NCBI GenBank assembly: GCA_041649715.1
Contig: JBAZMP010000003.1
Span: 100,894 to 164,893, forward strand
Reading direction: 5' to 3'
DNA length: 64,000 nt
Origin: Patescibacteria group bacterium
GTDB taxonomy: Bacteria; Patescibacteriota; Patescibacteriia; JAXHNJ01
In this document: piece by piece, positions 13,698 through 62,748 of the stretch
Numbering within the stretch: position 1 is the stretch's first letter
Layout: each line of letters opens with the position of its first letter
The notes under the pieces: model-generated
The model's database searches: none
What the model was told of the DNA's origin: nothing
The model's input: only the letters and a program-made list of their open reading frames with translations
Made by a program: the position numbers and the translations under genes

Positions 13698-13722
13698 ACG
13701 TGATCCCTCCAGTGGTTCACGT

Positions 13723-14170: not shown

Positions 14171-14183
14171 TTTGTCTGCGGCC

Positions 14184-14259
14184 TGGAGCCGATGGTCGGA
14201 TTTGAACCGACGACCTACTCCTTACCATGGAGTTGCTCTACCAACTGAGCTACATCGGC
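14184..14259 (-). tRNA. tRNA-Thr (anticodon GGU), CCA encoded
   Basis: GCCGATGTAGCTCAGTTGGTAGAGCAACTCCATGGTAAGGAGTAGGTCGTCGGTTCAAATCCGACCATCGGCTCCA. Anticodon loop AUGGUAA. Confidence 0.8.
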
Positions 14260-20011: not shown

Positions 20012-20302
20012 GTGAAGACGAAAACACGGGATGCGCCGATCAAAGTCCGGGTCGGGGCCGTGGAACAAAAGGGCGAGCACGGGGTGCCGTTCCTGGTTAC
20101 CTGGCCAACGAGCCCGACTTTGAAAGATTTAGGCAGTATCACGATCGAGCAGACAGCCGAGACCCTGCTAGGTGAACCCCCCTGTACGGGTGGCGAATAC
20201 CTAGTGGCTTTTGGTGTCTACCAGAAGGAAAAGGGTTGGCGTGCTCAAAAAGCCCGCCGATTCCGTCCGGATGATTTCAGAAATCCTGACATCATCCAGT
20301 AA
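20012..20302 (+). CDS. Hypothetical small protein (first gene of GC-rich island)
   Basis: GTG start preceded by 'aaggag' about 10 nt upstream. About 96 aa (VKTKTRDAPIKVRVGAVEQKGEHGVPFLVTW..). G+C-rich. Confidence 0.45.
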   Translation: MKTKTRDAPIKVRVGAVEQKGEHGVPFLVTWPTSPTLKDLGSITIEQTAETLLGEPPCTGGEYLVAFGVYQKEKGWRAQKARRFRPDDFRNPDIIQ

Positions 20303-20356
20303 AAGCATCGAGCATGTAGAACATGAGCATGTAGCACTCAGAAAGGATCGGCTACA

Positions 20357-21067: not shown

Positions 21068-21081
21068 GAAAGAGGAACGAA

Positions 21082-22185
21082 ATGGTAGAGACACCCTCTT
21101 TGCCGCAGCTCAAGGGCTTCGGCAATGACATGCTTTCAAGCAAGGAGAAGACAATCGGAGCGATTGTCACTATCCTGCTGATTGGCGCCGCGCTGCTCGG
21201 GCTTAATGCCCTTCTTCCCGGCATCAATCATTTTCTCTCGGGTCTGCTGGCCGCGGTCGGCAAGCTCGTGATGCTTGCCATCTCCCTGGCCGGCCTAGCC
21301 TTGTTCCTGGCCGTCGCCATGAACAAGCGGACCCACACGCTTCTCAAGCTGGGGTTCTACTGGCTGGCGCGCAAGACCACGATGGCCTTCGTCAGGTACG
21401 GCCCGACCACCATCATTGAGATCTACAACGATCACCTGACCGCAAAAGCTCAGAAGTTCGGCGAGAAAAAGATGGTCGTGGATTCCAAGCGGGAGGTCGT
21501 GGCGCGCACCATTGAAGAGAACCAGGCTTCGATCAACGAGAGCCAGGCGAACGCCAAAACTCTCAAATCCCGGCACTTCGACGACAAACAGAGAAGGTGG
21601 GATTCGATCGAACACAAGAATCTCTTCATGGAGTACAGCTCGAACATCAGCTTCCGCGAGGCCTCCAACGTGAATCTGCGCAAGCAGCTTATCAGGCTGG
21701 AATACTATCTCCAGATCCTGGAGAAGTTCCAGCAGGCGTTCAATCACCGCCGTAACGTGATCAAGAACTTCTGCAAGATCCTAAACACGGAGTACGAAGC
21801 CATGAAGGCGGCCGCGGAGGGAACTCACGAACTCTCGGCGCTCTTCGGCACCGACGACCTAAAGCAGGTCTTCGACATGACCATCGACTTCATGAGAGAG
21901 CGGATCGCTTTCTTCACGAGCGAGGTCGACACCTTTATGAGCGAGAACCTGCCGGTCGTCACCGAGCTCGACCTGCAGAACGAAGTGGCGGAAGACCAGC
22001 TTCTCGCCAGACTGACGGACATGGACAAGAAAGCCGATCACCTGATCGACCAGGCCGCCCAAGATGAGGTGGCCCTGACCGATATCCGGGGATTGGCAAC
22101 GTTGGTCAAGTCCAACCAGGCAACCGCGGCCACCCAAACGACGCCCTCTTCAACAAGAAGGCATCGCTACCTGGGCGGAAACTAA
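21082..22185 (+). CDS. Hypothetical membrane protein (2-3 N-terminal TM helices, long cytoplasmic helical domain)
   Basis: 367 aa. TM segments IGAIVTILLIGAALLGL / LSGLLAAVGKLVMLAISLAGLALFLAV. The remainder is predicted helical. Starts 15 bp after the previous stop, so it is probably co-transcribed. Confidence 0.55.
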   Translation: MVETPSLPQLKGFGNDMLSSKEKTIGAIVTILLIGAALLGLNALLPGINHFLSGLLAAVGKLVMLAISLAGLALFLAVAMNKRTHTLLKLGFYWLARKTTMAFVRYGPTTIIEIYNDHLTAKAQKFGEKKMVVDSKREVVARTIEENQASINESQANAKTLKSRHFDDKQRRWDSIEHKNLFMEYSSNISFREASNVNLRKQLIRLEYYLQILEKFQQAFNHRRNVIKNFCKILNTEYEAMKAAAEGTHELSALFGTDDLKQVFDMTIDFMRERIAFFTSEVDTFMSENLPVVTELDLQNEVAEDQLLARLTDMDKKADHLIDQAAQDEVALTDIRGLATLVKSNQATAATQTTPSSTRRHRYLGGN

Positions 22186-22238
22186 TAAGTCTCTCATTTT
22201 CCCAATTCTCAACCAGAAAAGTCAGTAAAGGAGTAGTC

Positions 22239-23717
22239 ATGAAAAACCTTACTCTTCTCTCGAAGGTCCTGATCGGAGTCGTGATCCTCGCAATCGTCGG
22301 TTCCCTCCTGTGGTTCAGCGGCATCCTCAACAAGGAGCGGCCGCTGCGGGTCAGCGTGGTCACCTGGGGTGGCTATGCCGGGGGACAGCTTTGGAACGAA
22401 GGTTTCAAAGCCAGCGAGGAAAGCCGCTTCCTTAAGGAATACGGCGTTCCCGTCGAGTTCGTCCTGAACGATGATATCGAAAGCAGCTTGAAGGCTTGGG
22501 AAGCCGGCGAAGTTGACGCTCACTGGTGGACCGCCGACGTATTTTCGACGGTCGCTGATGAGCTAGCCGCTTACAATCCCAAGGTCTTCATGCAGGCTGA
22601 CTGGTCCAGAGGCGGCGACGCCATCGTGGTCGTTCGCGGCATCAATTCCGTGAACGATCTGCGAGGCCGGAAAATCGCCGTCGCTTTCAAGACCCCCAGT
22701 CACAGCTTTCTGCTTTGGGCCCTTGAATCCGCGGGCATGACCCCGAACGACGTCCAGATCGTGGAAGTCGCTTCCGCCATCGACGCGGCGGCGGCATTCA
22801 AAGCTGGACAAGTCGATGCGGCTGTTGTTTGGGCACCGGATGATCAAGGCTGTGTCGATGCGGTACCCGGCTCAACAATCTTGGCCAACACCAAGGATGC
22901 CAAGTACATCATCAGCGACGTCTTCTTCGCGAAAGAAGAAGTCCTCGTCGCCCGCCATGACGATTTTGTTTCCCTGGCGGAAGGCTGGCTCAAAGGCAGC
23001 GCGTTGATCAACACCGATCCGACGGCCAAGAACAGAGCGGCTGAAATCCTCTCAACTGGATTGAGCGTATCGGTAGATTACGCTCTCGGAGCCATCAACA
23101 ATGTTCGCCTCACCACTCTGGGAGACAACATCAACTTCTTCAACATCAATGGCAACTACCAGGGCGTCAAGGGCGAAGACATTTATACCAAGACGGGAAG
23201 AATGTACCAAAAGTACGGCATCATCAAGGGAAGCTTTCCGGATTGGCGCTCTGTCGTCGATCTTTCAATCGTGAAGGAAGTCATCGAAAGAGGCAAGCTG
23301 ACGGGCAATATGAACGCGGCTGAAGCGGCCACGACCTTCGAGCGGCCGACCGAAAAGATGGCCTCCGCCCCGGCCATGGCGACCAAACGCGTGACGATCA
23401 ACTTCGCCACCAACGTTTACGCCTTGGACGAAAACGCCATGCGCATCCTTGACCTGCAAGCGGCTGACGCTCTGCGGTTCATGGGCGGCGTACGCGTCCG
23501 TATCACTGGCAACACCGATAATGTCGGCGATTACCAGATGAACATGAACCTGTCCCAGAAGCGGGCCGAAGCGGTCGCCGATTACCTGGCGAGAACCTAC
23601 AAGTTCGACCGCAACCGGTTCGTCATCGTGGGCAAGGGTCCGGACAATCCGGTCGCCTCAAATGAGACGCCGGACGGCCGGGCAAAGAACCGTCGCACGG
23701 ATATCGAACTCTTCTAG
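22239..23717 (+). CDS. Membrane-anchored NMT1/SsuA-type ABC substrate-binding protein fused to a C-terminal OmpA-like domain
   Basis: N-terminal anchor (LLSKVLIGVVILAIVGSLLWF). Central domain resembles nitrate/sulfonate/taurine-type binding proteins. The C-terminus carries an OmpA-C-like segment (NTDNVGDYQMNMNLSQKRAEAVADYL..GKGPDNPVASNETPDGRAKNRRTDIELF). Confidence 0.6.
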   Translation: MKNLTLLSKVLIGVVILAIVGSLLWFSGILNKERPLRVSVVTWGGYAGGQLWNEGFKASEESRFLKEYGVPVEFVLNDDIESSLKAWEAGEVDAHWWTADVFSTVADELAAYNPKVFMQADWSRGGDAIVVVRGINSVNDLRGRKIAVAFKTPSHSFLLWALESAGMTPNDVQIVEVASAIDAAAAFKAGQVDAAVVWAPDDQGCVDAVPGSTILANTKDAKYIISDVFFAKEEVLVARHDDFVSLAEGWLKGSALINTDPTAKNRAAEILSTGLSVSVDYALGAINNVRLTTLGDNINFFNINGNYQGVKGEDIYTKTGRMYQKYGIIKGSFPDWRSVVDLSIVKEVIERGKLTGNMNAAEAATTFERPTEKMASAPAMATKRVTINFATNVYALDENAMRILDLQAADALRFMGGVRVRITGNTDNVGDYQMNMNLSQKRAEAVADYLARTYKFDRNRFVIVGKGPDNPVASNETPDGRAKNRRTDIELF

Positions 23718-23814
23718 GGCCACGGCCTGAAAGATAGTTTGGTATCATACCGCCAAAGGGGCGGGAGTCAACTGATTCCCGCCCCTCTCATCAACCTCCT
23801 GGGAAGGAGAACGA

Positions 23815-24612
23815 ATGCATAACAATGGAGACCTGTTTTGCCTCCGAGGCAAACTGCCGCCGAAAACTCGAATGGTAATCGAGCTCGCCGGCCTGGTCAT
23901 CATTCTCCTTGTCTGGTGGGCGGTCGTCGCGACTGGTCTGGTCAAGCCGAAAATGCTGCCTTCACCGATTTCCGTCGTTACCTGCTTCGGTGAACTGGTG
24001 AAGCAAAATCACTTGGTCGGAAACCTGCTCTTCTCGTTGATGCTCAACATCCTGGGGTATATTGAGGCCATCCTGATCGCTGTACCGCTTGGTTTTCTGA
24101 TCGGCCTCCAGCCTATCCCGCGAGCCCTGAGTGAAAGATACATCACCGCCGGACGGTTCCTGCCGCTTTCGGCCGTGGTCGGTCTGTTCATTATGTGGTT
24201 CGGGATGTACACCAACATGAAAGTGCAGTTTCTGAGCTTAGGCATCGTTGTCTATCTCCTGCCGATGGTCATCCAGAGAGTCGACGAGGTCGATCAGATC
24301 TATTTCGACACCGTCAAGACTCTGGGCGCCAGCAAATGGCAGGCCGTGACGAGCGTTTTTATCCCGGGTGCGCTCTCCAAGATCTCTGACGACATCCGGG
24401 TCATCGTCGCCATAAGTTGGACCTATATCATCATCGCTGAGGTGGTGAACAGGACCCAAGGCGGCATCGGAGCGCTGTGTTACGGCGTCAGTCGCGCTAG
24501 CCGTCCGGACAAAGTATTCGCCATTTTGGCTATAATCATCCTGATCGGGATCGTCCAGGACAAATTCTTTCTTTTCCTGGACAAGAAACTCCTCAAGCAC
24601 AAGTACGTCTGA
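23815..24612 (+). CDS. ABC transporter permease (NitT/TauT family, SsuC/TauC-like)
   Basis: Six TM helices. Region resembling the EAA loop (..LGASKWQAVTSVFIPGALSKISDDIRV..). RBS 'ggaaggag' upstream. Confidence 0.7.
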   Translation: MHNNGDLFCLRGKLPPKTRMVIELAGLVIILLVWWAVVATGLVKPKMLPSPISVVTCFGELVKQNHLVGNLLFSLMLNILGYIEAILIAVPLGFLIGLQPIPRALSERYITAGRFLPLSAVVGLFIMWFGMYTNMKVQFLSLGIVVYLLPMVIQRVDEVDQIYFDTVKTLGASKWQAVTSVFIPGALSKISDDIRVIVAISWTYIIIAEVVNRTQGGIGALCYGVSRASRPDKVFAILAIIILIGIVQDKFFLFLDKKLLKHKYV

Positions 24613-24630
24613 ACAAAGGAGGTTTGAAAG

Positions 24631-25446
24631 ATGCCGACGCTACTCCCAGTCGTCTTCGAAAATACAAACCTCCCGGACGTCATCGAGCTGCGCAACATTT
24701 GCCAGACGTACGACGGAGGAAAGGCTTGGGTCTTACAGTATGTCAACCTCCTGATCGAGGACATCCCCGACCAGGGACAGTTCGTGGTCATACTCGGACC
24801 CTCAGGCTGCGGCAAATCAACGCTTCTGAAATATATTGCCGGCCTGCAAAAACCGACCAGTGGGGAAGTGCTGATCAGCGGAAAGGTCCGTACCGATGAC
24901 GTCGTCGTCGGCATGGTCTTCCAGCAGTACTCCTCCCTGCCCTGGTTCACGGTACTTGAGAACGTCATGCTGGGGCTAAGGTTTCAGAACGTGCCGGAGA
25001 AGGAAGCCCGGGAAAAAGCGATGCAAATGCTCGAAGTCGTCGGACTGGCCTGCGAGGCGAACAAATTCGCCAAAAGCACCCAGCTTTCCGGCGGCCAGAT
25101 GCAGCGCGTCGCCATCGCCCGCAGCTTGATCTCCAACCCCGGCATTATCCTGATGGACGAGCCGTTCGGCGCCCTGGACATCAACACCAGGCACCAGATG
25201 CAGCTCCTCCTCTGCGATATCTGGGAAAAGCTGCAGTCAACCATCATCTTCGTCACCCATGATATCAACGAAGCCGTGTTCCTGGCTGACGATATCTATG
25301 TGATGACGAAGAACCCCGGTTACATCTGCAAGCACTGGATAATTGACCTGCCCAAGCATCGTGACCGGTCAACCAAGCGTGACCCGCGGTTCATCGAACT
25401 CGCCAACGAGATCGATGATTACATGCAGAACTTACGCATCAAATAG
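24631..25446 (+). CDS. ABC transporter ATP-binding protein (NitT/TauT family)
   Basis: Walker A GPSGCGKST, signature LSGGQMQRVAIARSL, Walker B ILMDEPFGALD, H-loop VTHD. Confidence 0.85.
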   Translation: MPTLLPVVFENTNLPDVIELRNICQTYDGGKAWVLQYVNLLIEDIPDQGQFVVILGPSGCGKSTLLKYIAGLQKPTSGEVLISGKVRTDDVVVGMVFQQYSSLPWFTVLENVMLGLRFQNVPEKEAREKAMQMLEVVGLACEANKFAKSTQLSGGQMQRVAIARSLISNPGIILMDEPFGALDINTRHQMQLLLCDIWEKLQSTIIFVTHDINEAVFLADDIYVMTKNPGYICKHWIIDLPKHRDRSTKRDPRFIELANEIDDYMQNLRIK

Positions 25447-25468
25447 CTCATTTTTCATTCGCACATAA

Positions 25469-25500
25469 GGCTGACCCCTCAAAAGGTCAGCCTTTTTCTT
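25469..25500 (+). terminator. Rho-independent terminator after the ABC ATPase gene
   Basis: Stem ggctgacc/ggtcagcc followed by 'tttttctttt'. Confidence 0.6.
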
Positions 25501-25521
25501 TTGCCCAAATTCCTAAAATCC

Positions 25522-25550
25522 TTGACAAATAAATAATTTCGTGCTAATAT
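25522..25550 (+). promoter_or_regulatory. Strong sigma-70-like promoter TTGACA-17-TGcTAATAT for the AAA+ ATPase gene
   Basis: 'cttgacaaat'..'gtgctaatatg'. Same architecture as 19836-19864 and 33648-33676. Confidence 0.5.
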
Positions 25551-25623
25551 GTTGGGTTAATTTGCACCTTGTAATTTTGATATTTTTCACAGAGGCATTG
25601 AAAAAAAGAAAGGCAGGCACAGA

Positions 25624-27480
25624 GTGAAAGATGGTATAAAAAAGCAGCCGTTATCGCACGGAGAAGACGATTTTGAAAGCAGCGGTATTCCCGGTCTCGA
25701 CGACGCGGTCAAATCACTGGATAACATTCCCAAAATCCTGGGCCGCAGACGAGAAATGACGCGGAAAACGGAAGGTCATCTTCGCAAAGAAATGGCCGAA
25801 ACCGGCGAAACAGAGGAAAATCCTCTTCAGCCGGCCCTGGTTCGCGCCATGATCACCGCGGGCAAGCTCGCCCGTCATCTCGAGTCACAGCGGGAAAAAC
25901 CCGGCTATTACGGCGTGGTTTTTTCCCGACTGGCAGCAATGACCGATCCGGAAAAGTTCGATTACGGCAAGATTCAGCCGGGCACCAAGGTCAAAATCCT
26001 CACCAACGAAAACCAGCCGGAATTAATGGGGCAAGTGGGCTACACAGCCAACGAACCCGATTCGGACGGTCTTGTCATGGTGCTTTTCGATGAAGGCGAA
26101 TTCGGCCATTTCCTGGCTGTGCCGCCGGACGAAAAGCAACCGAGGGAGATCGAAATTGTCCCCGGCCAAGACCGAGTCATCGTCCTTTTCGAAGGACGCT
26201 TCATCGAGCTGGCTTCTCCGGAAGGAATGACCCTTTCCAGCGGCCAGGTGGTCAAGCTGGATCTGAAAACCAACCAGATCCTGGATATCGTCAGCCTAGA
26301 ACTGCCGGGCGAGATCGCCACGGTAAAATGTATCTTGGGCGGCCGCGTCCAAATCGACTTCCACGGTACCGATAAAATCGTGGCGGCCGGCGACCTGACC
26401 AAGACCTTAGAGCCCGGCAATCAGGTGATCTTAGACTCAACCAACCAGCTGATCACTGGCAACCTCGGCGACATGGATGTTTCCTACCGCTACAACCGCC
26501 CGCCGGCCATCACCTGGGATGATATCGGCGGACAGACCGCAGCCAAAGCCATACTCCAAGAGATGATTGAGGCGCGCTTCGATCATCCGGCCGCTTTTGA
26601 AAGGTTTCACAAGAAACCCCCCAAGGGCCTGCTTCTGCTCGGCCCCACCGGCTGCGGCAAGACGATGTTGGCCGAAGCCATGGCCTATTCGCTTTCGAAG
26701 CGCTTCGGTGAAACCGCCATGCGTTCCGGCTTTTTCCTGGTCAAGGGACCGGAGATTCTGCGCTCGCTCGTCGGCGAACAGGAAGCTATCATGCGCCACA
26801 TCTTCGTCCTGGCAGACAAGCACTTCGCCAAATTCGGCTTCCCCGCCATCATCTTCATCGATGAATGCGAAGGCATCTTGAAAAAGCGGGGCACGGGCAC
26901 CAGCGGCGACTACTTCGAAACGCTGGTGCAAACCTTCTTGGCCCTGATGAACGACACCAAGGCCATCGTCGTACTGGCGACAAATAGGCCGGATATGCTC
27001 GACCCGGCGGTGGTCCGCCACAAGCGCATCGACCGCAAGATTCCGGTTCGTCGTCCGGATCGGCCGGCCTCCGAGGAAATCTTCAGAATCTATCTGAAAG
27101 ATCTCCCTCTCTCCGAGGGCTTGACCGGCGAGACACTGGCCAAACTGGTGACAACCGAGCTTTTCTCGGACTGCTACGGCATGTACAAACTCATTGTCCA
27201 GACCGAAAACGGAACAGAAGAGAAAATCTTTGGCCTAGCGCAGGTCATCAACGGCGCCATGATCGCCGGGATAGTAGATGAGGCCACCTCGGCCGCCGTC
27301 AACCGGCAGATCAAAGACGGTAAGGAAACCAGTCTGACCGCAGATGACCTAAAAGAAGCCCTGAGCAGAGTCTATCAGGGCGAACTCCTGACCGATCACA
27401 CCGAAGACCAGAAAGAATTCGGGGAAAACCTGACCGGCAAGGTCCTGGAAGCCCACAAGCTCTTTGTGGGCCGCAAATAG
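25624..27480 (+). CDS. ARC/Mpa-family (proteasome-associated-ATPase-like) AAA+ unfoldase; no C-terminal GQYL-type proteasome-docking tail
   Basis: Predicted GTG start. N-terminal short helix, then a beta-rich inter-domain region, then an AAA module: ITWDDIGG, Walker A LLLGPTGCGKT, Walker B IIFIDECEG. ARC/Mpa-like stretches (FFLVKGPEILRSLVGEQE.., KKRGTGTSGDYFETLVQTFL, ATNRPDMLDPAVVRHKRIDRKIPVRRPD) are matched against the ARC/Mpa family from memory. The protein ends ..LFVGRK. Confidence 0.75.
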   Translation: MKDGIKKQPLSHGEDDFESSGIPGLDDAVKSLDNIPKILGRRREMTRKTEGHLRKEMAETGETEENPLQPALVRAMITAGKLARHLESQREKPGYYGVVFSRLAAMTDPEKFDYGKIQPGTKVKILTNENQPELMGQVGYTANEPDSDGLVMVLFDEGEFGHFLAVPPDEKQPREIEIVPGQDRVIVLFEGRFIELASPEGMTLSSGQVVKLDLKTNQILDIVSLELPGEIATVKCILGGRVQIDFHGTDKIVAAGDLTKTLEPGNQVILDSTNQLITGNLGDMDVSYRYNRPPAITWDDIGGQTAAKAILQEMIEARFDHPAAFERFHKKPPKGLLLLGPTGCGKTMLAEAMAYSLSKRFGETAMRSGFFLVKGPEILRSLVGEQEAIMRHIFVLADKHFAKFGFPAIIFIDECEGILKKRGTGTSGDYFETLVQTFLALMNDTKAIVVLATNRPDMLDPAVVRHKRIDRKIPVRRPDRPASEEIFRIYLKDLPLSEGLTGETLAKLVTTELFSDCYGMYKLIVQTENGTEEKIFGLAQVINGAMIAGIVDEATSAAVNRQIKDGKETSLTADDLKEALSRVYQGELLTDHTEDQKEFGENLTGKVLEAHKLFVGRK

Positions 27481-27503
27481 CCTTTGAACCTTATAACAAC
27501 ATT

Positions 27504-28249: not shown

Positions 28250-28268
28250 ATTTTTTGTTATTTAAATT

Positions 28269-29399
28269 CTACCACTCCCATTCGCGTCCTTCCGGTATGA
28301 CCTCAACCCAGGTCTGACCGCGGTTGAACTCTATTTCCTGTCCGCTAGAATCATAAAAAATAGTGCGGTCGGTCCGCTCCGGTTTTTTCCAGGTGCCTTC
28401 GACCGCAAGGCCATCCCGCAAGACAAAAGCCTTACCCTCACCATGAGTACTTAAACCAAGCCTGCCCTTTTCGCCCAGATACTCCTCCGGCGGGACAATT
28501 TGAACGATAATATTCTTAGCCTTCAATTCCTGCTTATTATTGGCATCCACTTGCACTTGATCCGCGTTATATCTTAAATATAAATTTTCCTCTTTGATGT
28601 ATTTCCACTCCACTTCGTAGGTATAAGAGGAAAATTTAACTTTATAAAACTTTTGGTCTTCGCCCCTATCAGCCAGAACCGCATCGTCTTTAAAAAGCCA
28701 CATCCTCGTGGTTGATTGCTTTTCTAAAAGTCCCTTGTCGCGCAAGGCATAAACGAGCTTCTCCCCGGAAGTGAAAAGATTGTGCGGGGCAAAGAGGGTG
28801 TGGTCCCGCCAAAAATAGACCGCGTCCCTGGATAGGGCATTTAAATCATTGGTGTCATAATCGCGGATATTGCCTAAGGCGGCCGGCGAACCGCCGGCGT
28901 GAGCGTACAAAGCGGCGTATTCATAAGCCCAGTCCAAATAATAGGGGCGGGCCGATCTTACCGGACCAATAACGGGGGCGGTTGAACCGCCGGTAAATAA
29001 AACCAGGAAACGAGTCGCGCCGCCTTCCGCTAAAGTTTCGTAAATAATCGATGCCTGGCTAAGGCCGGCTTGCGGCCGCACGGACAGCAGATTCTCAATC
29101 ATCACTCCGACCGGCCATAGATTGGCGGCCGCCGCGTCCTTTACTTTCTGGCCGTCAAACCGACGGTAATATTCCTCCGGCTTAAGGACAACAGTCATCG
29201 GAGGGGTATCGTTTTTAACCTTGTCATGCGCCAAAACCGGCAAGATATCGAAACCATTTAAAAATATTGAAAGGCTGAAGAACACCCCGGCAAAAACAAA
29301 CAAACCGACCACTATGAAAAGACGAGCCTTCAAATCAAAAAGAGGGCTGACTTTTTTCTTTGTTAAAATCTTATTGTTCTTTTTGTTTTTGTTTTTCAT
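28269..29399 (-). CDS. DUF3048 domain protein (YerB-like), membrane-anchored
   Basis: N-terminal TM, then ..ENLLSVRPQAGLSQASIIYETLAEGGATRFLVLF.. typical of DUF3048. Paralogous to the next gene. Confidence 0.65.
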   Translation of the reverse strand: MKNKNKKNNKILTKKKVSPLFDLKARLFIVVGLFVFAGVFFSLSIFLNGFDILPVLAHDKVKNDTPPMTVVLKPEEYYRRFDGQKVKDAAAANLWPVGVMIENLLSVRPQAGLSQASIIYETLAEGGATRFLVLFTGGSTAPVIGPVRSARPYYLDWAYEYAALYAHAGGSPAALGNIRDYDTNDLNALSRDAVYFWRDHTLFAPHNLFTSGEKLVYALRDKGLLEKQSTTRMWLFKDDAVLADRGEDQKFYKVKFSSYTYEVEWKYIKEENLYLRYNADQVQVDANNKQELKAKNIIVQIVPPEEYLGEKGRLGLSTHGEGKAFVLRDGLAVEGTWKKPERTDRTIFYDSSGQEIEFNRGQTWVEVIPEGREWEW

Positions 29400-31568: not shown

Positions 31569-31627
31569 TATATCTTAAGGTATCTATATTATAACACAAA
31601 TAAATAATTTATTCAAGAAAGAACCCG

Positions 31628-33588: not shown

Positions 33589-33647
33589 TAATACCGTCTT
33601 ATTTTATCATAAAGAGTCATATATTTCAAGGTCAGCCGACTCACCCA

Positions 33648-34420: not shown

Positions 34421-34550
34421 TCAATCCTTTAGATTCGTTTTCGTGACCCGCATCGGTTTATCTGGTGTGGGTCTTTTTTATTTAGTGCTTTCCTGCCAGA
34501 AAAAATCGTGCTATAATGAGAGTGTTCTAAATCACTAATTATAAAAAAAT

Positions 34551-34856: not shown

Positions 34857-34943
34857 ACCAAGAACTCCGCAAAGACACCCTTAGCCAAAAGGGGTCTTTT
34901 TTGTTATAATATACTAACTTAATTAACCGACCAAAAACCTTTT

Positions 34944-45650: not shown

Positions 45651-46670
45651 CTATTCGAGCAGGCCCGGCACGAGACAAAGCTTGAGCGCGACCTTTCTTG
45701 TTTCAAGACCAGAGATGATGGCCGCCTCATTCGCGACAATCTTGCCGCCTGTTTGGACGAACCGGCCGTTAACTTCCTTAATAGAATCGTTAGCGTCGAT
45801 GATGGCATCCGGCAACTCGACATCCGTATTGGGCAACGGATGGGTCAACACTCCTTTCAGGGCGTCCAGCGCTTTTTGGGTCACGTGGAACGGCCGGTAC
45901 ATCTCTGCCACCCTCTCAGAGGAAAGTTTTTCCTCATCAAGGTTAGTCTGCGGCCGGATGGCGTAAACGCCGTTGTGTTCGCTGAATACCTCATCCAGGC
46001 TGGGCATTGTCCTGTCAGTGAGCTCCCGGAATTTGACCCCTTTCTCCCGCATGTGCTCGCGAATGCCGACTGGAATCGGCCGGCTTTCCGGCGAAAGAAA
46101 CGTGATCTCGACGTCGTCAAACATGCACAACTCGTAGGCCAATGAATGAGCGGCTCGGCTATTTTGCAAATCGCCGAAGATAAGGAACTTTTTGCCGTCC
46201 AGCGTCCCGAGCTTCTTCCGGAATATGTGGCCGTCAATAAAGGCCTGGGTCGGATGCTGGAGATTGCCTGCCCCGCCGTTAACCGTCGGCTTACCGATTC
46301 TTTCTTTTACCCTGTAGACCCAATCCTTGGGAAAACGCAGGACGAAAAGATCCAACCGGCCGTAACCCGAAATGATGCCCATGGTTGCGGTGTAGGACTC
46401 GCCTTTCGCCACTGACGAGGTGACGGCGAAACTGTTGTCGTAAAAAACCTTGGCCCCTAGCGAATCGGCGGCGAAAATGAATGACCAATAGGTGCGGGTC
46501 GACTCCTGGGCGAAGAAGATACCGATACGTTTCCCTTCCAAGGGGTTCGTATCGATCCGATCGGGATGATCCGACATATCCCAGATCAGCTCCAAATGTT
46601 TCCGATCAAACTGCTGCATCTCGATGATATGCGGCCAATCCCGCCATTTGCCGACTTTCTGTCCGTTCAT
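45651..46670 (-). CDS. Aspartate/ornithine carbamoyltransferase-family protein, divergent (STRTY in place of STRTR); orphan, G+C-rich
   Basis: Carbamoyl-phosphate-binding region FFAQESTRTYWSF, HPTQ motif (NLQHPTQAFIDG) and HPLP motif (LTHPLPNTD) resembling ATCase. No other pyrimidine or arginine biosynthesis genes are nearby. Confidence 0.6.
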   Translation of the reverse strand: MNGQKVGKWRDWPHIIEMQQFDRKHLELIWDMSDHPDRIDTNPLEGKRIGIFFAQESTRTYWSFIFAADSLGAKVFYDNSFAVTSSVAKGESYTATMGIISGYGRLDLFVLRFPKDWVYRVKERIGKPTVNGGAGNLQHPTQAFIDGHIFRKKLGTLDGKKFLIFGDLQNSRAAHSLAYELCMFDDVEITFLSPESRPIPVGIREHMREKGVKFRELTDRTMPSLDEVFSEHNGVYAIRPQTNLDEEKLSSERVAEMYRPFHVTQKALDALKGVLTHPLPNTDVELPDAIIDANDSIKEVNGRFVQTGGKIVANEAAIISGLETRKVALKLCLVPGLLE

Positions 46671-46884
46671 CTCACACGCTCCTTTCTTTCTGGAAAACGC
46701 CCGTTTATTACTTCTTTTGACAAAGATCTATTTAAAAAAAATCGCCCCGGGGGTGATCAATACCTTCGAAAAAAGGGGCATAAGCCCCCAACAAAATTAA
46801 TTTAGTTTTCTTTATGTATTTCATTCTGAAAGTTAGACTACACCCGCTAAATTCATCTGTCAAGCAAACAGTTATCCACAAGTA

Positions 46885-48378
46885 TTATTTAAGCTTATGT
46901 AAGAGCATTTCACTGGCTACCTTATGATCGGCCTGGCCGCCGGTTTTTTTCATCACCTGGCCAAGTAAGAACTTAAAAGTCGCTTCCTTGCCGCCTTTAT
47001 ACTCCTTAACCGGACCGGGATTTTCTTTGATGACCTCCTTTATCACCTCTGCTAGTTTTTTTTCATCGCCCATCATTCCCCACCCCTTTTCTTCCATGAT
47101 ATTTGAAGGGTCTCCGCCGGTTTCAAACATAACTTTTAGAACCTCCTGGCCGACCAAATTATTGATCTTCTTCTGCCAGATAAGCTTGATAAATTCGGCG
47201 AAATTTTCCGGGGTGATCCTTAAATCTCTGATTTTGGTCTTGCTTTCGTTTGATAAACTCAACAAGCGATTGATCAGCCAATTGGCGATCAACCGGGAAA
47301 ATTCTTTTTTGTTCTGCTCATAAGTGTAAAGTCCCTGATCGGTTTTTGACTCCGCTTCCAGCCATTTTTTCAGCTCCGAGGTCACCCCTTCCGTATAATC
47401 CGCCAGGTTCAAATCACCGATCAAAACTTGAGAGTCTTTTTCTTCAAAACCATATTCCTCTTTGAACCTGCCCCTTTTGGCGGCCGGCAATTCCGGTATT
47501 TTTCTTTTCAATCCCGCCAGATTCGCTTGATCGAAATGAAGCGGCGGCAGATCCGGTTCGGGAAAATATCGGTAATCATGGACCCCTTCCTTGACCCTAA
47601 GTTCTACGGTCACTTGTTTTTTTTCATCCCAACCCCGGGTAGAAGACTCCGTCGGCGGTTTTTTTTGGTCCCAAAGCTCCGTTTGCCGTTCAATTTCATA
47701 CGCCAACCCTTTTTCCACCGATTTAAAGGAATTTAAGTTCTTGATTTCTGTTTTGGGGTATAATTTATCGTCGCCTTCAAAACGCAAGGAAATATTGGCG
47801 TCGCAGCGCAGATGGCCCTTTTCCATGTCGGCCTCGGAAATGCCTAAATAGCGCATAATCAGCCTCAAATCCTGTAAAAAAATCTTGGCTTCTTCGGGCG
47901 TCCGCAAATCCGGCTCAGTAACAATCTCCATCAGGGGCGTGCCGGCCCGGTTAAAATCAATAAAGGTTTTGTCTTTGGCGTGGATCAGTTTACCGGTATC
48001 CTCTTCCAAATGCAGATCCTTGATCCTCACCCTTCTTTTTGTCTCGCCGGCATCTATTTCAAAACGGCCGTTCCGGCCGATAGGCTCGGAATATTGCGAT
48101 ATCTGGTAACCCTTGGGCAAATCGGGATAAAAATAACTTTTACGGTCGAAATGAGTGGTCAGGCCGACTTCGCAATTCAAAGCCATGGCCGCCATCACGG
48201 AAAAATCCACCGCTTTCTGATTGGCCACCGGCAGAGTGCCGGGCTGGCCGGTGCAGACCGGACAAATAGTGGTATTGGCCGGTTTGTCCTCGCCGGTATT
48301 ATCACAAGAACAGAACATCTTTGATTTTGTTTTTAGCTGGACATGGATTTCCAAACCGATGATGGCTTCGTATTTCAT
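46885..48378 (-). CDS. gatB: Aspartyl/glutamyl-tRNA(Asn/Gln) amidotransferase subunit B
   Basis: MKYEAIIGLEIHVQLKTKSKMFCSC.. and a C-terminal GatB/YqeY domain. Confidence 0.9.
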   Translation of the reverse strand: MKYEAIIGLEIHVQLKTKSKMFCSCDNTGEDKPANTTICPVCTGQPGTLPVANQKAVDFSVMAAMALNCEVGLTTHFDRKSYFYPDLPKGYQISQYSEPIGRNGRFEIDAGETKRRVRIKDLHLEEDTGKLIHAKDKTFIDFNRAGTPLMEIVTEPDLRTPEEAKIFLQDLRLIMRYLGISEADMEKGHLRCDANISLRFEGDDKLYPKTEIKNLNSFKSVEKGLAYEIERQTELWDQKKPPTESSTRGWDEKKQVTVELRVKEGVHDYRYFPEPDLPPLHFDQANLAGLKRKIPELPAAKRGRFKEEYGFEEKDSQVLIGDLNLADYTEGVTSELKKWLEAESKTDQGLYTYEQNKKEFSRLIANWLINRLLSLSNESKTKIRDLRITPENFAEFIKLIWQKKINNLVGQEVLKVMFETGGDPSNIMEEKGWGMMGDEKKLAEVIKEVIKENPGPVKEYKGGKEATFKFLLGQVMKKTGGQADHKVASEMLLHKLK

Positions 48379-48390
48379 AATTGTCCAAAT

Positions 48391-49047
48391 TTATAATAAT
48401 TTTTTTATGGCCTGCCAGACTTTTTGGTGGATAATCTGCGGGGCAAGAAATTTTCCTTTTTCCAGGCAGGGAATCATTTGCCAATTTTTATATTTCTTAA
48501 CTAAAACCTGGCATTGTTTATAGGCGAGTTTTTGGTGATTAAAATCAACTTCATGTATATCGCGCTTGCCCCTCGCTATCATCAACTTTCTGGTTACGTT
48601 TGGCGGAACATCAAGAAATAAAGTTAGGTCTGGCCTAGGTATACCCAACACCCTAAATTCTAGCTCATCCAGCCAGGCATAAAATTTTTCCTTTTTAACC
48701 TTACCCTTAATTTTTATGGCCTGATGGATTTTATTGGCGGGAGAATAACGATCAGAAACAATAATCTTACCTTCTTTGAGTGCTCGCCACATTTTTTCTT
48801 TGGCTTCAAACCGATCTAGGGCATAAAGCAGTGAAATCAGATGGGGATCAGTTTGCTTGGTTTGACCGAAATCCCCTTTTAAATAACGCCTGACCATCCG
48901 GCCGAAAAATGATTTTTCATATTGAGGAAAATCAGTCAGATAGGTCTTCCGGCCGGCCCTTCTTAAATGAGATAATAATAATTTTATTTGGGTGGATTTA
49001 CCCGAACCATCAATGCCATCGATAACTATTAATTTCCCTTTTTTCAT
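48391..49047 (-). CDS. tmk: Thymidylate kinase
   Basis: P-loop IVIDGIDGSGKSTQ and a DRY-like motif (VSDRYSPANKIHQAI). Confidence 0.8.
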   Translation of the reverse strand: MKKGKLIVIDGIDGSGKSTQIKLLLSHLRRAGRKTYLTDFPQYEKSFFGRMVRRYLKGDFGQTKQTDPHLISLLYALDRFEAKEKMWRALKEGKIIVSDRYSPANKIHQAIKIKGKVKKEKFYAWLDELEFRVLGIPRPDLTLFLDVPPNVTRKLMIARGKRDIHEVDFNHQKLAYKQCQVLVKKYKNWQMIPCLEKGKFLAPQIIHQKVWQAIKKLL

Positions 49048-49129
49048 AGCCTTATTTTACCACACATTATGGTAAGAAAAAAGCCCGTGCTTTTACCACG
49101 ATAAGCCACGGGCTATCCTTCATATTTAA

Positions 49130-49576
49130 TCACTTCTTTTTCTTTTTTCCGCCCTCCTGGTCGGTTTTACCAATCCGACGCGAAACCTTGGCGCGTTCCA
49201 GGGGAAATCTGATCATCCGGGATCGCTTGGCTAAAGCCTGTAGCATCGCCTGCCGGATATACCAGACAGCATAGGAGATAAACTTGTAACCCCTGGTTTC
49301 GTCGAAGCGATGAGCGGCCTTAATGAGACCGACGTTCCCCTCATTGACCAGATCTGCCAAAGACAGTCCTTGATTGACATATTCCTTGGCCAAAGAAACC
49401 ACATAGCGCAGATTCGCCCGGACAAGCTGGTGCAGCGCTTTTTCGTCGCCTTTTCTGAACCTTTTCATCAGCTCTCTTTCCTGCTCCCGGGTCAGAAGAG
49501 GAATTTTATCGATTTCATCAAGATAACGATCAAGACTTACAGCCCCTTCTTCTTTGCCGTCATCATCAGAAAACAT
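49130..49576 (-). CDS. Truncated sigma-70 paralogue (regions 1.2-3.0 only; lacks region 4)
   Basis: Start set at [11 protein letters not shown] with RBS 'aaaggagtgg'. Contains ..[55 protein letters not shown].. and then ends in ..[13 protein letters not shown] with no helix-turn-helix for the -35 element. Confidence 0.55.
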
Positions 49577-49729
49577 AACCGCCACTCCTTTGCTAAAAGA
49601 TTCTATTATTTGAATAGTTAAAGAACTTCCTTCTAACTTAGGCTTAGTCCAAAAAGAGCAAAATGTCAAGAGATAGAAAAAAGCCCGTGGCGGTCAAAGA
49701 CCGACGGGCTTTTGTGAGTATCCCCTCCA

Positions 49730-50611
49730 TTAGCTCTCGACATGCCCCCTTAAATAGCGGGCGCGACTTTCATGACGAAGGCGCAATATGGCCTTCTCCT
49801 TGATTTGTCTGACCCGTTCGCGGGTCAACTTAAGCTCAGTGCCGATTTCCTCCAACGTGCAAGGCTTATCGTCTTCCAGACCGAAGTAACGAACAATAAT
49901 GAACCGTTCGCGCCGAGTCAGAGTATCAAGCGCCTTCTGCATGTCTTCGCTCAAAGCGGCCACATATACCTGTTCATCTGGCGGCTCCGCTTTGGGATCA
50001 GGGAGAGACTCGCCAAGAGTATCCTCGTTTTCGTAACCGATAGACGCATCAAGAGAAAGGTGACTGTTTGTTATCTGCATGGTGTCGCGGACTTCATCGG
50101 CCGGCAACTTCAGCTTTTTCGCAATTTCCTCCGCGCTAGGAGAACGCCCAAGCTCTTGATCGAGGTTTTGGGCTGCTTTGCCGATCCGATAGAGCGTACC
50201 CGCTCGATTCAAAGGCAGTCTGACGATACGTGATTGCTCGGCCAGCGCCTGGAGCATCGCTTGCCTTATCCACCAGACAGCATAGGAAATGAACTTGTAG
50301 CCGCGTTTCTCGTCGAAACGGTAAGCCGCCTTTATTATACCGAGGTTTCCCTCGTTAACAAGATCGGCCAACGGCAGACCCTGGTTGACGTACTGTTTCG
50401 CCACCAAGACGACGAATCGCAGATTGGCTTTCACTAAATCGTGAAGGGCCTCCTCATCTCCTTTCCGTATCCTTCGGGCTAAATCCTTCTCCTGCTCCCG
50501 CGTCAGGAGAGGAGTTTCGTTGATCTCTTTAAGATAGATGCTCAGGCTTTCTTCGGCCTGATGGCCAGGATTTACTTCCTGGTAATCTTCCCGGTCGTCT
50601 TCCGAGATCAT
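49730..50611 (-). CDS. RNA polymerase sigma-70 family factor (RpoD-like, regions 1.2-4)
   Basis: Start at MISEDDRED with RBS 'gggggagaaat'. Region 2 [34 protein letters not shown]. Region 4 ..LEEIGTELKLTRERVRQIKEKAILRLRH. Confidence 0.8.
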   Translation of the reverse strand: MISEDDREDYQEVNPGHQAEESLSIYLKEINETPLLTREQEKDLARRIRKGDEEALHDLVKANLRFVVLVAKQYVNQGLPLADLVNEGNLGIIKAAYRFDEKRGYKFISYAVWWIRQAMLQALAEQSRIVRLPLNRAGTLYRIGKAAQNLDQELGRSPSAEEIAKKLKLPADEVRDTMQITNSHLSLDASIGYENEDTLGESLPDPKAEPPDEQVYVAALSEDMQKALDTLTRRERFIIVRYFGLEDDKPCTLEEIGTELKLTRERVRQIKEKAILRLRHESRARYLRGHVES

Positions 50612-50750
50612 ATTTCTCCCCCCTTTCAACGGGGAAAAAGTGGGGTTTTTAAGGAATTCAAGGGACAAAGGTACCTTCTTTTATCAGCATAGCGCGAATA
50701 AAAAAGGTGTCAAATTGGTTATCGACCCAGGGCGTTATGTAAAATTTATA

Positions 50751-52130
50751 CTATTTCCTGAGCTTGATATATTTGACCAAAATGGGATGCTTCTCCCGAA
50801 CAAGCTGGTACATACGTTTAGCGATTTCACGGATGGAGAAATGGGCGGCTGGCGACGTTCTCAGCTTCACAAAATGATACAATTCACGCAAATTCAAGTT
50901 AATGAGGATACGCCGGCGGTAAGCGTTTAAGACCAGATACCTGGACTCTTCCGGAAATTTGGCCGCAATCTTTGGGTAGACTTCTTCTACTTTATTAGTC
51001 GAGGCTAAAAAAATCTGTTTTAATTCCGCGTTTTCCTCGATTACCGGAGGGGTCTGATAGCCGTTTTCTATGGTCAGATCCTGCACCGTCTGGGTGCACA
51101 TGCGGTGACGTTTAAACTCATAATACGCCCCCTCGTCCATGACGCAATCAAAAATATAATAGACGTGCTCCAATTCCTTCAAAGGTATGTCGTAATCACC
51201 ATACTTTTTTAAGGCTTCATCGATCACCTCTTCCTTTTCCTCCTTGGTCATATTTGAAACCCGGCTTCTCACCTCCACGAAAGACTGGTGGCAATAACGA
51301 TAAAGCAAAGCGCTGACGAGGATATCTTCGGCATTATCACGATATTCTACCAGCATGACGTTGGTCTGATCGTTGCTCTTGGTGGAAAAATACTTCTGGG
51401 CTAATTCAGCCAAACCCAAAGCCGTCTCTCTTAAATAAATATTGGGTTGAGCGTATTTTACCAAAGTCGGCAGATTCTTTTGGCTGACCTTTTTGATTTC
51501 CTGGCCCAAATCCTGCACTTCGGCCAAGGGGTGCGAAAGCATCTTGGTGATGGCATATTCAAGAACCCTCGCATTCATGGTCACTCCGATATTGGCCAGT
51601 GAAGCGACGGGTAAAATATAGCGAGCGGAATCCAGAGCCTGAGGTTTAAGTCTCGCCTCGTATTTGGCCGGCTCTTCGTCCATTTTTTTCGGTATCTTAT
51701 TTTTCAAATACTCTAGAATTTTCACGTAAAAATTCAAATAATTTTTCATCAGAAACTTCAGGGTTTCCAGATACAGCCCCTCAAATTCTGTTTTTTCCAT
51801 GTTGGGCGGAAAATAAAAATCATCTTCAGCAAAGACCTGATAACGGGAGGATTTCTCGGTATAGGAAGCGAGGCGGTTGCCCTCCAAGACTTCAGTGGCC
51901 AACCGAGAGATATTTTCCACCGCCAAATTAAGCACGGCGTGCTCGGCCACCGAGGAGTGCCCGTAACCGACGACCCATTTTTCATTGAACTCGGCCGATT
52001 TTTCTTCGGTCAGTTCGTCGGCAATCTCGGCAAAATTCTTGTCGGTGCGCGAACATTTGGCAAAAGTCACCGCTTTTACCTCCGGCGGCAGATCCTTAAG
52101 TAGATAGACCCTTCTTTTGTTCTCTGGCAT
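50751..52130 (-). CDS. thyX: Thy1/ThyX-family FAD-dependent thymidylate synthase, unusually long (459 aa)
   Basis: N-terminal ..HSSVAEHAVLNLAVENISRLATEVLEGNRLASYTEKSSRY.. (ThyX-like motif block with RHR replaced), an internal ..EFKRHRMCTQ.. and a C-terminal ..LNAYRRRILINLNLRELYHFVKLR..AHFSIREIA.. (NAR/AQ-EI-like block). ThyX motifs and the typical ThyX length of about 220-250 aa are recalled from the family. Confidence 0.55.
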   Translation of the reverse strand: MPENKRRVYLLKDLPPEVKAVTFAKCSRTDKNFAEIADELTEEKSAEFNEKWVVGYGHSSVAEHAVLNLAVENISRLATEVLEGNRLASYTEKSSRYQVFAEDDFYFPPNMEKTEFEGLYLETLKFLMKNYLNFYVKILEYLKNKIPKKMDEEPAKYEARLKPQALDSARYILPVASLANIGVTMNARVLEYAITKMLSHPLAEVQDLGQEIKKVSQKNLPTLVKYAQPNIYLRETALGLAELAQKYFSTKSNDQTNVMLVEYRDNAEDILVSALLYRYCHQSFVEVRSRVSNMTKEEKEEVIDEALKKYGDYDIPLKELEHVYYIFDCVMDEGAYYEFKRHRMCTQTVQDLTIENGYQTPPVIEENAELKQIFLASTNKVEEVYPKIAAKFPEESRYLVLNAYRRRILINLNLRELYHFVKLRTSPAAHFSIREIAKRMYQLVREKHPILVKYIKLRK

Positions 52131-52134
52131 ATTT

Positions 52135-52554
52135 TTACCTTCCCGTGCTCCCGTGCCGGCCGCAGCCTCTGCGGGTCGCAGAAATTTTACGCACTTCTTT
52201 TATTCTAGCAGAAAAGACCGGCTGGATTAAGACCTGGGCAATCCGGTCCCCTTTTTTAATAGAAAAACTGCCCTTTGATATATTCTGCAGAGTAACTGAA
52301 TATTCGCCGCGGTAGCCGGAATCGTAGACACCGCCCAATGATTTGATACCCTTTGCCCCCAGCCCCCCTCTGTCCCAGATCAAAGCAACCGTGCCTTTCG
52401 GAATTTCCATTTTAAAACCCAGATAAAAGATGTGACGCTCGCCGGGCTTTAAAACCTTATTCTCTCGAGAATACAGATCCAGGCCGGCGTCGCCGGGATG
52501 GGCATAAAAAGGCAATCTTACCTCTTTCTTTAATTTCTTTATTTTAAGCAGCAT
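52135..52554 (-). CDS. dut: dUTP diphosphatase
   Basis: ..AHPGDAGLDLYS..GRSGLG..GVYDSGYRGE.. matches trimeric dUTPase motifs. Confidence 0.75.
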   Translation of the reverse strand: MLLKIKKLKKEVRLPFYAHPGDAGLDLYSRENKVLKPGERHIFYLGFKMEIPKGTVALIWDRGGLGAKGIKSLGGVYDSGYRGEYSVTLQNISKGSFSIKKGDRIAQVLIQPVFSARIKEVRKISATRRGCGRHGSTGR

Positions 52555-53134
52555 TTATTTTCTTGTAAATTTTTTTGACCTCCTTTGATAATTCCCCCAG
52601 ACTGCCTTCGTTTATTATCGTGTAATCCGCCATCGCAATCGGCCCCCCTTTTTCCAAGTTTTCAATCTCCGCTTGGTCGCGCGACTCGGCCTCCACCCGG
52701 GGAAAGGAACGGTATTTCATTTTTTCGTCCTGGCCATGACGGCTCGCCCTCTCTTCCAGCCGGGCATAGCGGGTTTGAGGCGAGGCATATACCGCCACGA
52801 TCACCAAATCCTTACCGTACTTTTCCTTTAAGACCTTGTATTCTGACCAGCCATAGAGACCATCGCCAATGACATTACCCCTTATTAAGCCGGCATCGAA
52901 TTTTGCTAAGTTTAATATGGCAAAGGCCGCCATGCCGTATTTCTGCCGAAAAGCTTCCCGGATCGGCCGTTCGTTGGCTTCGGTCGGCGCCAGCCCCCTC
53001 CTTTTGACCTCGTCCAAGGTAATCTGACCGAAACGGATATACTGGTAACCCTGCTGCACAAAAAAATCCCCCACTTCGCTTTTGCCACTACCGGGCATGC
53101 CCACCAGACAGACCAGTTTATTGCCCATAAGCAA
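52544..53134 (-). CDS. P-loop nucleoside/nucleotide kinase (dNMP-kinase-like)
   Basis: Walker A VGMPGSGKSEVG. The context is a thymidylate-metabolism operon. Specificity unknown. Confidence 0.5.
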   Translation of the reverse strand: MLMGNKLVCLVGMPGSGKSEVGDFFVQQGYQYIRFGQITLDEVKRRGLAPTEANERPIREAFRQKYGMAAFAILNLAKFDAGLIRGNVIGDGLYGWSEYKVLKEKYGKDLVIVAVYASPQTRYARLEERASRHGQDEKMKYRSFPRVEAESRDQAEIENLEKGGPIAMADYTIINEGSLGELSKEVKKIYKKINAA

Positions 53135-53139
53135 AAAAA

Positions 53140-53673
53140 TTATTTTTCTTCCTTTATAACAACTTCGCCTTCGGAGGCTCTCATCTCTTCAATCTCACCC
53201 GCAAAAAGAGACTGAACGATCTTATTCCATTCCGGATTCTCTTGGTATATATCTACTTGGATGCCGGCCTCCCTTAAATATTTCACCGCTTTTTCGTTGC
53301 GGTAGACCTTGCCTACGACCACTCTTTTAATGCCGGCCGCGACGACGTATTTGGCGCAGTGAATACAAGGGCTATATTTCGTATACATGGTGGAACCTTC
53401 GGTGCTCGCCCCAGGGATAATTGCTACTTGCAGGATCACATTGTGTTCGCCGTGGATCGTCCTCACACAATGGCCTTCCTCCATCATATGCCCCCCATCG
53501 TTACAGTGGGGCAAGCCCGGCGGAGAACCATTATAGCCCGTGGATATTATCCGTTTGTTCAAAACAAGGACGGCGCCGGACTGCAAACGGTCGCAGGTCG
53601 AACGTGTGGAGATTATTTTTGCCACCGCCATAAAATAATCGTCCCAGGATGGGCGGAAATTTCTTTTTGGCAT
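53140..53673 (-). CDS. dCMP deaminase (ComEB-like zinc deaminase)
   Basis: Zinc-binding HGEHNVI ... PCIHCAKYV motifs (H(A/C)E / PCxxC). Confidence 0.75.
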   Translation of the reverse strand: MPKRNFRPSWDDYFMAVAKIISTRSTCDRLQSGAVLVLNKRIISTGYNGSPPGLPHCNDGGHMMEEGHCVRTIHGEHNVILQVAIIPGASTEGSTMYTKYSPCIHCAKYVVAAGIKRVVVGKVYRNEKAVKYLREAGIQVDIYQENPEWNKIVQSLFAGEIEEMRASEGEVVIKEEK

Positions 53674-62618: not shown

Positions 62619-62748
62619 TTTTCCTTGGCATTTACCAAAATAAAGGGTTAAAAACCTACCTCTATTTTAGCAAAAAAATGGCCGTTTGGCAAGAAAATGA
62701 CCTTTTTAATATTCGGCTTATTTGAGCCAAAAAATCTGCTCATTAAAC

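Follow-up and report, generated by a model that had tools for sequence, protein, structure and literature searches.

What use could a bacterial cell have for a primary sigma factor that has been cut back to its sigma2 domain? Sigma factors are, to our knowledge, taken to require at minimum the domains sigma2 and sigma4, and gp55 of bacteriophage T4 is the sole well-studied natural sigma2-only factor that we know of. The question is posed by a pair of neighbouring sigma-70 genes in a stretch of 64,000 nucleotides (nt) from a metagenome-assembled genome (MAG) deposited as 'Patescibacteria group bacterium' (assembly GCA_041649715.1, contig JBAZMP010000003.1, positions 100,894 to 164,893; the whole stretch is referred to as the window). 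The upstream gene, the full copy, encodes a complete housekeeping factor, while the downstream gene, the short copy, encodes a paralogue that ends just beyond sigma2. Judged from the sequence, there is about an even chance that the short copy specifies a free-standing sigma2 protein which is maintained by selection, docks on core RNA polymerase (RNAP) and reads -10-like DNA without contacting a -35 element.

The two genes are arranged head-to-tail on the minus strand, and their open reading frames (ORFs) and flanking signals are as follows, with positions counted from the first letter of the window:

50686-50713, minus strand: promoter-like site of the full gene, TTGACA-N16-TATGCT, found by a consensus scan (10/12 matches)
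49730-50611, minus strand: complete primary sigma gene of the RpoD/SigA type without region 1.1, 293 amino acids, with Pfam matches to Sigma70_r1_2, r2, r3 and r4
49674-49710, minus strand: intrinsic terminator of the full gene, AGCCCGTCGGTC...GACCGCCACGGGCT and then a run of T, read from the sequence
49641-49669, minus strand: promoter-like site of the short gene, TTGACA (49669-49664), 17 nt, TAAGCC (49646-49641), located by alignment with the corresponding sites of the full gene and of L003, the closest relative that has been sampled
49585-49590, minus strand: Shine-Dalgarno (SD) sequence of the short gene, AAGGAG, 8 nt ahead of its ATG, read from the sequence
49130-49576, minus strand: short sigma paralogue, 148 amino acids, in which regions 1.2 and 2.1-2.4 are followed by some 20 residues of region 3.0 and by the basic tail GGKKKKK (Pfam, BLASTP)
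49142-49148, minus strand: heptamer A_AAA_AAG, zero frame, within the lysine tail, read from the sequence
49073-49114, minus strand: intrinsic terminator of the short gene, AGCCCGTG...CACGGGCT and then TTTTTTCT, homologous to the terminators of the full copy and of L003

The full copy is an ordinary representative of the primary (group 1) sigma-70 factors, RpoD/SigA, in the short form without region 1.1 that also occurs in FCB-group bacteria. It begins with an ATG codon preceded at a distance of 4 nt by the SD sequence GGGGGAG, exceeds the gathering scores of all four Pfam sigma-70 domains (78.8 bits for r3 and 59.6 bits for r4) and has RpoD models as its top NCBIfam matches. It is identical to MFA5070656.1 at NCBI and shares 75-79% identity with the single-copy sigmas of related MAGs. 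The short copy (ATG at 49576-49574, stop at 49130-49132) is a derivative of this type which has in common with it regions 1.2 and 2.1-2.4, at 70% identity and including residues for core binding and for -10 recognition and melting, and which lacks regions 3.1, 3.2, 4.1 and 4.2. Sigma70_r1_2 (42.6 bits) and Sigma70_r2 (69.8 bits) are its only Pfam domains, both above the cut-offs, and neither Sigma70_r3 nor Sigma70_r4 is matched; the equivalent of residues 159-293 of the full copy, 45% of the protein, is missing. BLASTP aligns the two proteins from region 1.2 into the first residues of region 3.0 (94/135 identical residues, E 4e-66), and over 125 aligned codons the nucleotide identity is 66.7%. 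The short ORF is uninterrupted; when it is compared with the full copy, regions 1.2-3.0 show a single gap, an in-frame deletion of four codons in the stub of region 3.0. The same 148 amino acid product is called by the gene callers of three sources, JGI included. The protein of 17 kDa is strongly basic, with an isoelectric point of 9.83 versus 6.17 for the matching part of the full copy, and 14 of its last 32 residues are lysine or arginine.

An initial annotation of this DNA, made from the letters and their ORFs, had described tandem sigma-70 genes in which a full RpoD-like factor is followed by a paralogue without region 4, and both the coordinates and the Pfam matches bear this out. The same is true of the good ribosome-binding sites that it assigned to both genes, and of the lysine-rich tail that takes the place of the region-4 helix-turn-helix: the domain annotation which it had proposed as a check finds Sigma70_r4 to be absent. 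Two of its points need amendment. Regions 1.2-3.0 of the two proteins are homologous but not near-identical, given the identities above and the saturation of synonymous sites, and a truncation 'before region 4' is correct only in so far as region 4 has gone, since most of region 3 has gone with it.

Is the truncation genuine, or could a mis-assembly or a sequencing frameshift have created an apparent second, truncated gene? Artefacts of this sort do occur among the other short sigma hits in databases: P0089, P0024 and P0018, on long contigs, consist of a region-2 ORF directly followed by a region 3/4 ORF and are frameshift-split full genes, while P0184 holds an internal assembly duplication, so that these hits do not represent a recurrent family of short sigmas. 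At the present locus, by contrast, sequence coding for regions 3/4 is found in no frame downstream of the short copy, and a tblastn search with the full sigma detects no remnant of them anywhere in the 64-kb window. Both other frames terminate within 10 codons downstream of the short gene, and only 82 nt separate its stop codon from the ATG of tmk (49047), a spacer that holds the intrinsic terminator and an extended -10 motif as the tmk promoter. A frameshift or read-through that restores region 4, which the initial annotation had named as the finding that would overturn its description, is thereby rejected. So is programmed -1 frameshifting at the A_AAA_AAG heptamer: the -1 frame ends after 10 codons and adds no sigma sequence, and the heptamer is thus no route to a longer product. 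The copies differ at one nucleotide in three and therefore do not represent a collapsed or duplicated repeat, and the sequence shows 0 mismatches to the comparable contigs, a 235-kb ENA MEGAHIT contig and the Logan assembly of SRR8542065. That the short gene is an artefact is accordingly very improbable indeed.

How did the pair come about? Homologous promoter-like boxes, TTGAC-N16/17-TAnGC, lie 5' of both copies and of the single sigma gene of L003 (contig JBDRMK010000030), where the site reads TTGACT-N17-TAGGCT; that of the short gene was not called by the consensus scan because the last position of its -10 hexamer is not T. Homologous terminators, AGCCCGT...CACGGGCTTTTTT, follow the same three genes. 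The 3' arm and T run of the full-gene terminator are common to L003, and the pattern AGCCCGT-N-ACGGGCTTTT occurs in the 64 kb only at the two sigma 3' ends, with 0 occurrences expected. L003 is syntenic with the source genome (dCMP deaminase, kinase, dut, thyX, sigma, tmk, gatB) and carries a single sigma in the order thyX-sigma-tmk with a sigma-tmk spacer of 78 nt, a place at which the source genome has an extra ~680 nt. Since both copies have homologous boxes, SD and terminator, it is the entire transcription unit that was duplicated in place. An old tandem duplication copied the whole primary-sigma unit, from promoter and leader through SD and ORF to the terminator, and the downstream copy later lost ~0.4 kb, with which region 4 and what followed of region 3 disappeared, but retained its promoter-like boxes, SD and terminator. 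A contig of a Krumholzibacteriia MAG (L076) holds two complete primary-type sigma genes, 568-1416 and 4001-4819, ~2.6 kb apart; sigma duplication thus occurs elsewhere in the group.

By the divergence of the two copies, the duplication is old. Synonymous sites are saturated in every comparison (YN00), and the non-synonymous divergence (dN) between the copies is 0.21, whereas the full copy is separated from its L004 orthologue by a dN of 0.068. In an alignment of 116 residues, identity to orthologues reaches 92% for the full copy and amounts to 72-80% for the short copy, which matches its neighbour at 74%. By a three-point partition, the short branch has undergone a protein change of roughly 18% and the full branch one of roughly 7%. 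At the near-invariant positions D24, S69 and L92 it is the short copy that has the family consensus residue and the full copy that has changed since. A neighbour-joining tree places the short copy on a long basal branch, as sister to the full copy in 0/200 bootstraps, and the shared derived residues are in conflict: four join the full copy with L003 and two join the full with the short copy, one of the latter two motifs being also found in other lineages. The duplication may have preceded or followed the split from L003.

Has the short copy been under selection since then? Counted at codon positions 1, 2 and 3, the two copies differ in the proportion 33:16:76, and together with saturated synonymous divergence (dS) against a dN of 0.21 this does not match neutral sequence, in which dN would lie near dS and changes would be evenly spread. 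A neutral ORF of 147 codons would be stop-free with a probability of 0.16 at 0.1 and of 0.04 at 0.2 substitutions per site, indels being ignored. At near-invariant positions, defined as those at least 95% conserved in the family set of 155 orthologues, the short copy keeps 56 of 61 residues in regions 1.2-2.4, and the five changes are all conservative (A>M, I>F, F>Y, Q>E, W>Y), in comparison with 9 of 16 positions changed in the region 3.0 stub (Fisher p = 8.6e-5). The stub has had family-hydrophobic residues replaced or deleted (L140S, Y141R, L154G and the deletion of AQNL, full-copy numbering), residues which in full-length sigmas are packed onto the remainder of sigma3. Such a pattern is in keeping with a protein which lost sigma3 long ago and in which sigma2 is still constrained. 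The simplest reading is that sigma3 and sigma4 were lost early, that the orphaned helix drifted or became the basic tail, and that sigma2 has been under purifying selection; constraint on sigma2 after the loss of sigma3/4 would in turn mean that the truncated protein has long been functional. The initial annotation had offered a competitor or decoy on the one hand and a decaying duplicate on the other, and the pattern of substitutions speaks for a sigma2 part that selection has maintained over a long time.

A decaying duplicate would be a non-functional remnant, either of the tandem duplication or of a second sigma that was at one time full-length and was truncated recently, and would simply not yet have acquired a stop codon or frameshift. 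The short copy has after all lost 45% of the protein, including two domains that are essential for normal sigma function, and the protein evolves faster than that of the full copy, having diverged at 14 of the 77 near-invariant positions. By our own estimate, a recent neutral phase of at most ~0.05 substitutions per site fits the 5/61 changes, over which the ORF would remain open with a probability of ~0.39. The stub, moreover, could have diverged while the paralogue was still of full length, with the truncation following only recently. Further observations have to be set against a protein maintained by selection. The non-synonymous rate on the short branch is ~3 times that of the full copy. 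The -10-like hexamer of the short gene, TAAGCC, is weakened by the lack of the final T. The NCBI protein set of the source MAG includes the full sigma and not the short one, probably because the short gene was annotated as a pseudogene. W434 (E. coli numbering), invariant in the 155 orthologues, is a tyrosine at position 106 of the short protein. An AlphaFold2 model built on a 30-sequence alignment is poor (predicted local distance difference test, pLDDT, 60.7), with helices over regions 1.2-2.4 and a disordered tail; the Foldseek matches of this model are all sigma factors, with template modelling (TM) scores of only ~0.35. A lone sigma2 fragment binds core less tightly than a whole sigma, and competition with the housekeeping factor would therefore need high expression. 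There are no population single-nucleotide polymorphisms among the contigs compared, which are all identical. Conservation in related genomes, a test suggested in the initial annotation, is likewise not seen: a tandem or truncated sigma copy is present at 0 of 160 related loci (80 from GTDB and 80 from JGI metagenomes), the syntenic L003 included, and no orthologue of the short copy above 70% identity exists among 5.8 billion proteins, where the best non-self hit stands at 70%, which makes the short copy a singleton. This test of relatives is a weak one because identity to the nearest sampled sigmas does not go beyond 75-79%, and the databases searched contain no genome whose sigma exceeds 79%.

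Several features are nonetheless difficult to reconcile with decay. Saturated synonymous sites and the 33:16:76 proportion imply that most of the divergence accumulated under coding constraint, and the concentration of changes in the stub rather than in sigma2 is unlike neutral decay. The SD, the promoter-like boxes and the terminator have all been kept, the truncation falls just beyond the sigma2/sigma3 boundary, and the stub has become less hydrophobic and more charged. As a matter of general knowledge, dead DNA is usually deleted fast from bacterial genomes. Decay is in our judgement the main alternative, a possible account of the short copy but not the probable one, and if it were correct the locus would provide a tidy case of the decay of a duplicated essential gene, and no more.

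What, then, could a selection-maintained sigma2 protein do? The short copy keeps the region 2.2 motif DLVNEGN-GLIKA, which serves core binding, as well as the equivalents of E. coli Y430, W433, R436 and Q437, which serve -10 recognition and melting; further changes are D445>K (position 117 of the short protein), H455>E (127) and E458>K (130), in E. coli numbering. With regions 3.1-4.2 missing there can be no sigma finger, no binding to the beta-flap and no -35 recognition, and a canonical holoenzyme is therefore impossible. If expressed, the short protein would dock on the beta' clamp helices of core RNAP via its region 2.2 surface, and its regions 1.2, 2.3 and 2.4 would read a -10-like sequence on the non-template strand, in the absence of beta-flap contact, -35 contact and sigma finger. 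Immediately upstream of the -10 element, the basic tail may contribute a non-specific affinity for DNA. Transcription would be modulated through the occupancy of a site that is used by the housekeeping sigma and by NusG, and the output may be sigma-dependent pausing in trans or, alternatively, weak -35-independent initiation at -10 or extended -10 promoters, which appear to be common in this genome. Competition, -35-independent initiation or pausing could each be what the short protein brings about. A more specific proposal, which we put forward tentatively, is that of a cellular sigma2-only protein kept by selection either for -35-independent initiation at extended -10 promoters with short leaders or as a NusG-competing, trans-acting and -10-dependent pause factor; such a protein would be the chromosomal counterpart of T4 gp55 and of the sigma70(1-448) fragment.

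Biochemical precedents for such activities are available. E. coli sigma70 residues 1-448, a fragment devoid of regions 3 and 4, binds in trans when added to elongation complexes and causes efficient -10-dependent pausing (PMC3326312), and a sigma that lacks region 4.2 is still able to initiate at promoters of the -10-only and extended -10 types (PMC3173786; Kumar et al. 1993, as cited in a later paper). In domain content sigma70(1-448) is nearly the same as the short copy, with regions 1.2-2.4 and without 3 and 4. However, sigma70(1-448) and Thermus aquaticus sigmaA(1-390) are laboratory constructs, whereas the short copy is encoded in a genome with its own expression signals; it differs from the engineered fragments also in lacking region 1.1 and the non-conserved region and in having a remodelled, basic 3.0 stub.

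The natural precedent is T4 gp55, a sigma2-only factor which directs accurate initiation (PMC2988020). Like the short copy it is a small natural protein of the sigma family in which essentially only sigma2 is recognisable, and it docks on the beta' coiled-coil and initiates at promoters that have a -10-type element only (PMC2988020). Unlike the short copy, gp55 is highly diverged and phage-encoded, and it works with the sigma4 mimic gp33, the sliding clamp gp45 and a clamp-binding C-terminus of its own; the short sigma shares 70% identity with the housekeeping sigma and belongs to a cluster of housekeeping genes on the chromosome, with no gp33-like partner in evidence. A phage origin or membership in the gp55 family was considered and rejected: PHROGs returns only generic sigma families, no relatives of the short copy are found in viral contigs, and its neighbours are housekeeping genes. 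SigO-RsoA of Bacillus subtilis offers a different likeness, in that sigma function is split over small polypeptides each with a subset of the sigma domains. The SigO and RsoA genes, however, encode complementary parts, while the neighbour of the short copy is a complete sigma and the window holds no separate region-4 protein.

A further precedent leads to another explanation of the short copy. PhyR has a sigma-like domain that captures the anti-sigma factor NepR, as outlined in PMC4551977, and thus represents a sigma-derived domain kept for a role other than canonical promoter recognition. In a similar fashion, the short protein might act away from RNAP by titrating an anti-sigma factor or an activator that binds sigma2 of the housekeeping factor. 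The conservation of the sigma2 surface with the remainder of the sigma gone would suit such a role, as would the location of the gene right beside that of the sigma it would imitate, and PhyR provides, in the same outline, a precedent for a degenerate sigma-like decoy domain. The resemblance has limits: PhyR is an extracytoplasmic function (ECF)-like sigma2 plus sigma4 module fused to a receiver domain and binds an anti-sigma factor, and none of these features is present in the short copy. No candidate sigma2-binding partner is encoded next to it, the neighbours being thyX, dut, tmk and gatB; the residues that it has kept are those for core binding and -10 recognition, which a pure decoy for a regulator would not need; and the strongly basic tail that it has gained points to nucleic-acid contact. 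Titration of a regulator off RNAP seems improbable to us.

If the short copy is a selection-maintained sigma2 protein acting on RNAP, cells too would employ minimal sigma modules, in this instance derived by the reduction of a housekeeping sigma to sigma2; our literature search found no relevant description of a natural cellular sigma lacking region 4. The protein would be a possible regulator of RNAP availability, of -35-independent initiation or of sigma-dependent pausing, and it would provide a natural and easily expressed reagent of 17 kDa for the study of lone-sigma2 action on core RNAP and on elongation complexes.

Are there suitable promoters for such a protein? The extended -10 motif TGNTANAAT is present in 22 copies in the window versus 8.7 expected (2.5-fold), a number reached in 0 of 100 shuffles, in agreement with the extended -10 promoters noticed in the initial annotation. 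Non-coding DNA, 11% of the window, holds about 10 of the 22, at 7-46 nt before ORF starts on the same strand, which suggests that this organism makes frequent use of extended -10 promoters with very short leaders. Examples of the motif, and the related element in front of tmk, are:

8998-9006, plus strand: TGNTANAAT
28266-28274, minus strand: TGNTANAAT
31588-31596, minus strand: TGNTANAAT
33601-33609, minus strand: TGNTANAAT
34509-34517, plus strand: TGNTANAAT
34902-34910, plus strand: TGNTANAAT
62664-62672, minus strand: TGNTANAAT
49054-49062, minus strand: extended -10 motif of tmk, TGGTAAAAT, ending 6 nt before the tmk ATG

The tmk mRNA is probably leaderless, given that the motif ends 6 nt before its start codon, and the same arrangement is seen in L003 (4930-4962: TGATAAAAT, 6 nt, ATG). 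In E. coli the TG motif of extended -10 promoters is contacted by H455 and E458, which are conserved in neither copy, the full copy having N and G at these positions, and a link between the short sigma and extended -10 promoters is therefore only plausible.

Both sigma genes are part of a pyrimidine/dTTP cluster on the minus strand (45651-53673), with dCMP deaminase, an AAA_18 kinase, dut, thyX, sigma, the short sigma, tmk, gatB and an ATCase-like gene, and the order of the cluster is conserved in L003. The nearest relatives of the full sigma are found in MAGs of UBP1, Krumholzibacteriota and Latescibacterota, while source and L003 both carry the NCBI label 'Patescibacteria group bacterium'; this label may be wrong for the two of them. 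Elsewhere in the window there is a cluster of four tRNA genes (12975-14259, minus strand: Trp-CCA, Thr-TGT, Tyr-GTA and Thr-GGT), besides which no other Rfam family in the window scores above its gathering threshold. Finally, a block on the plus strand at ~20300-27500 has a G+C content of 0.52-0.57 compared with ~0.45 and encodes two ORFs without a Pfam match, a fusion of an NMT1-like binding protein with OmpA, an ABC permease and ATPase, and also an AAA ATPase. The block may have been acquired as an island by horizontal transfer.

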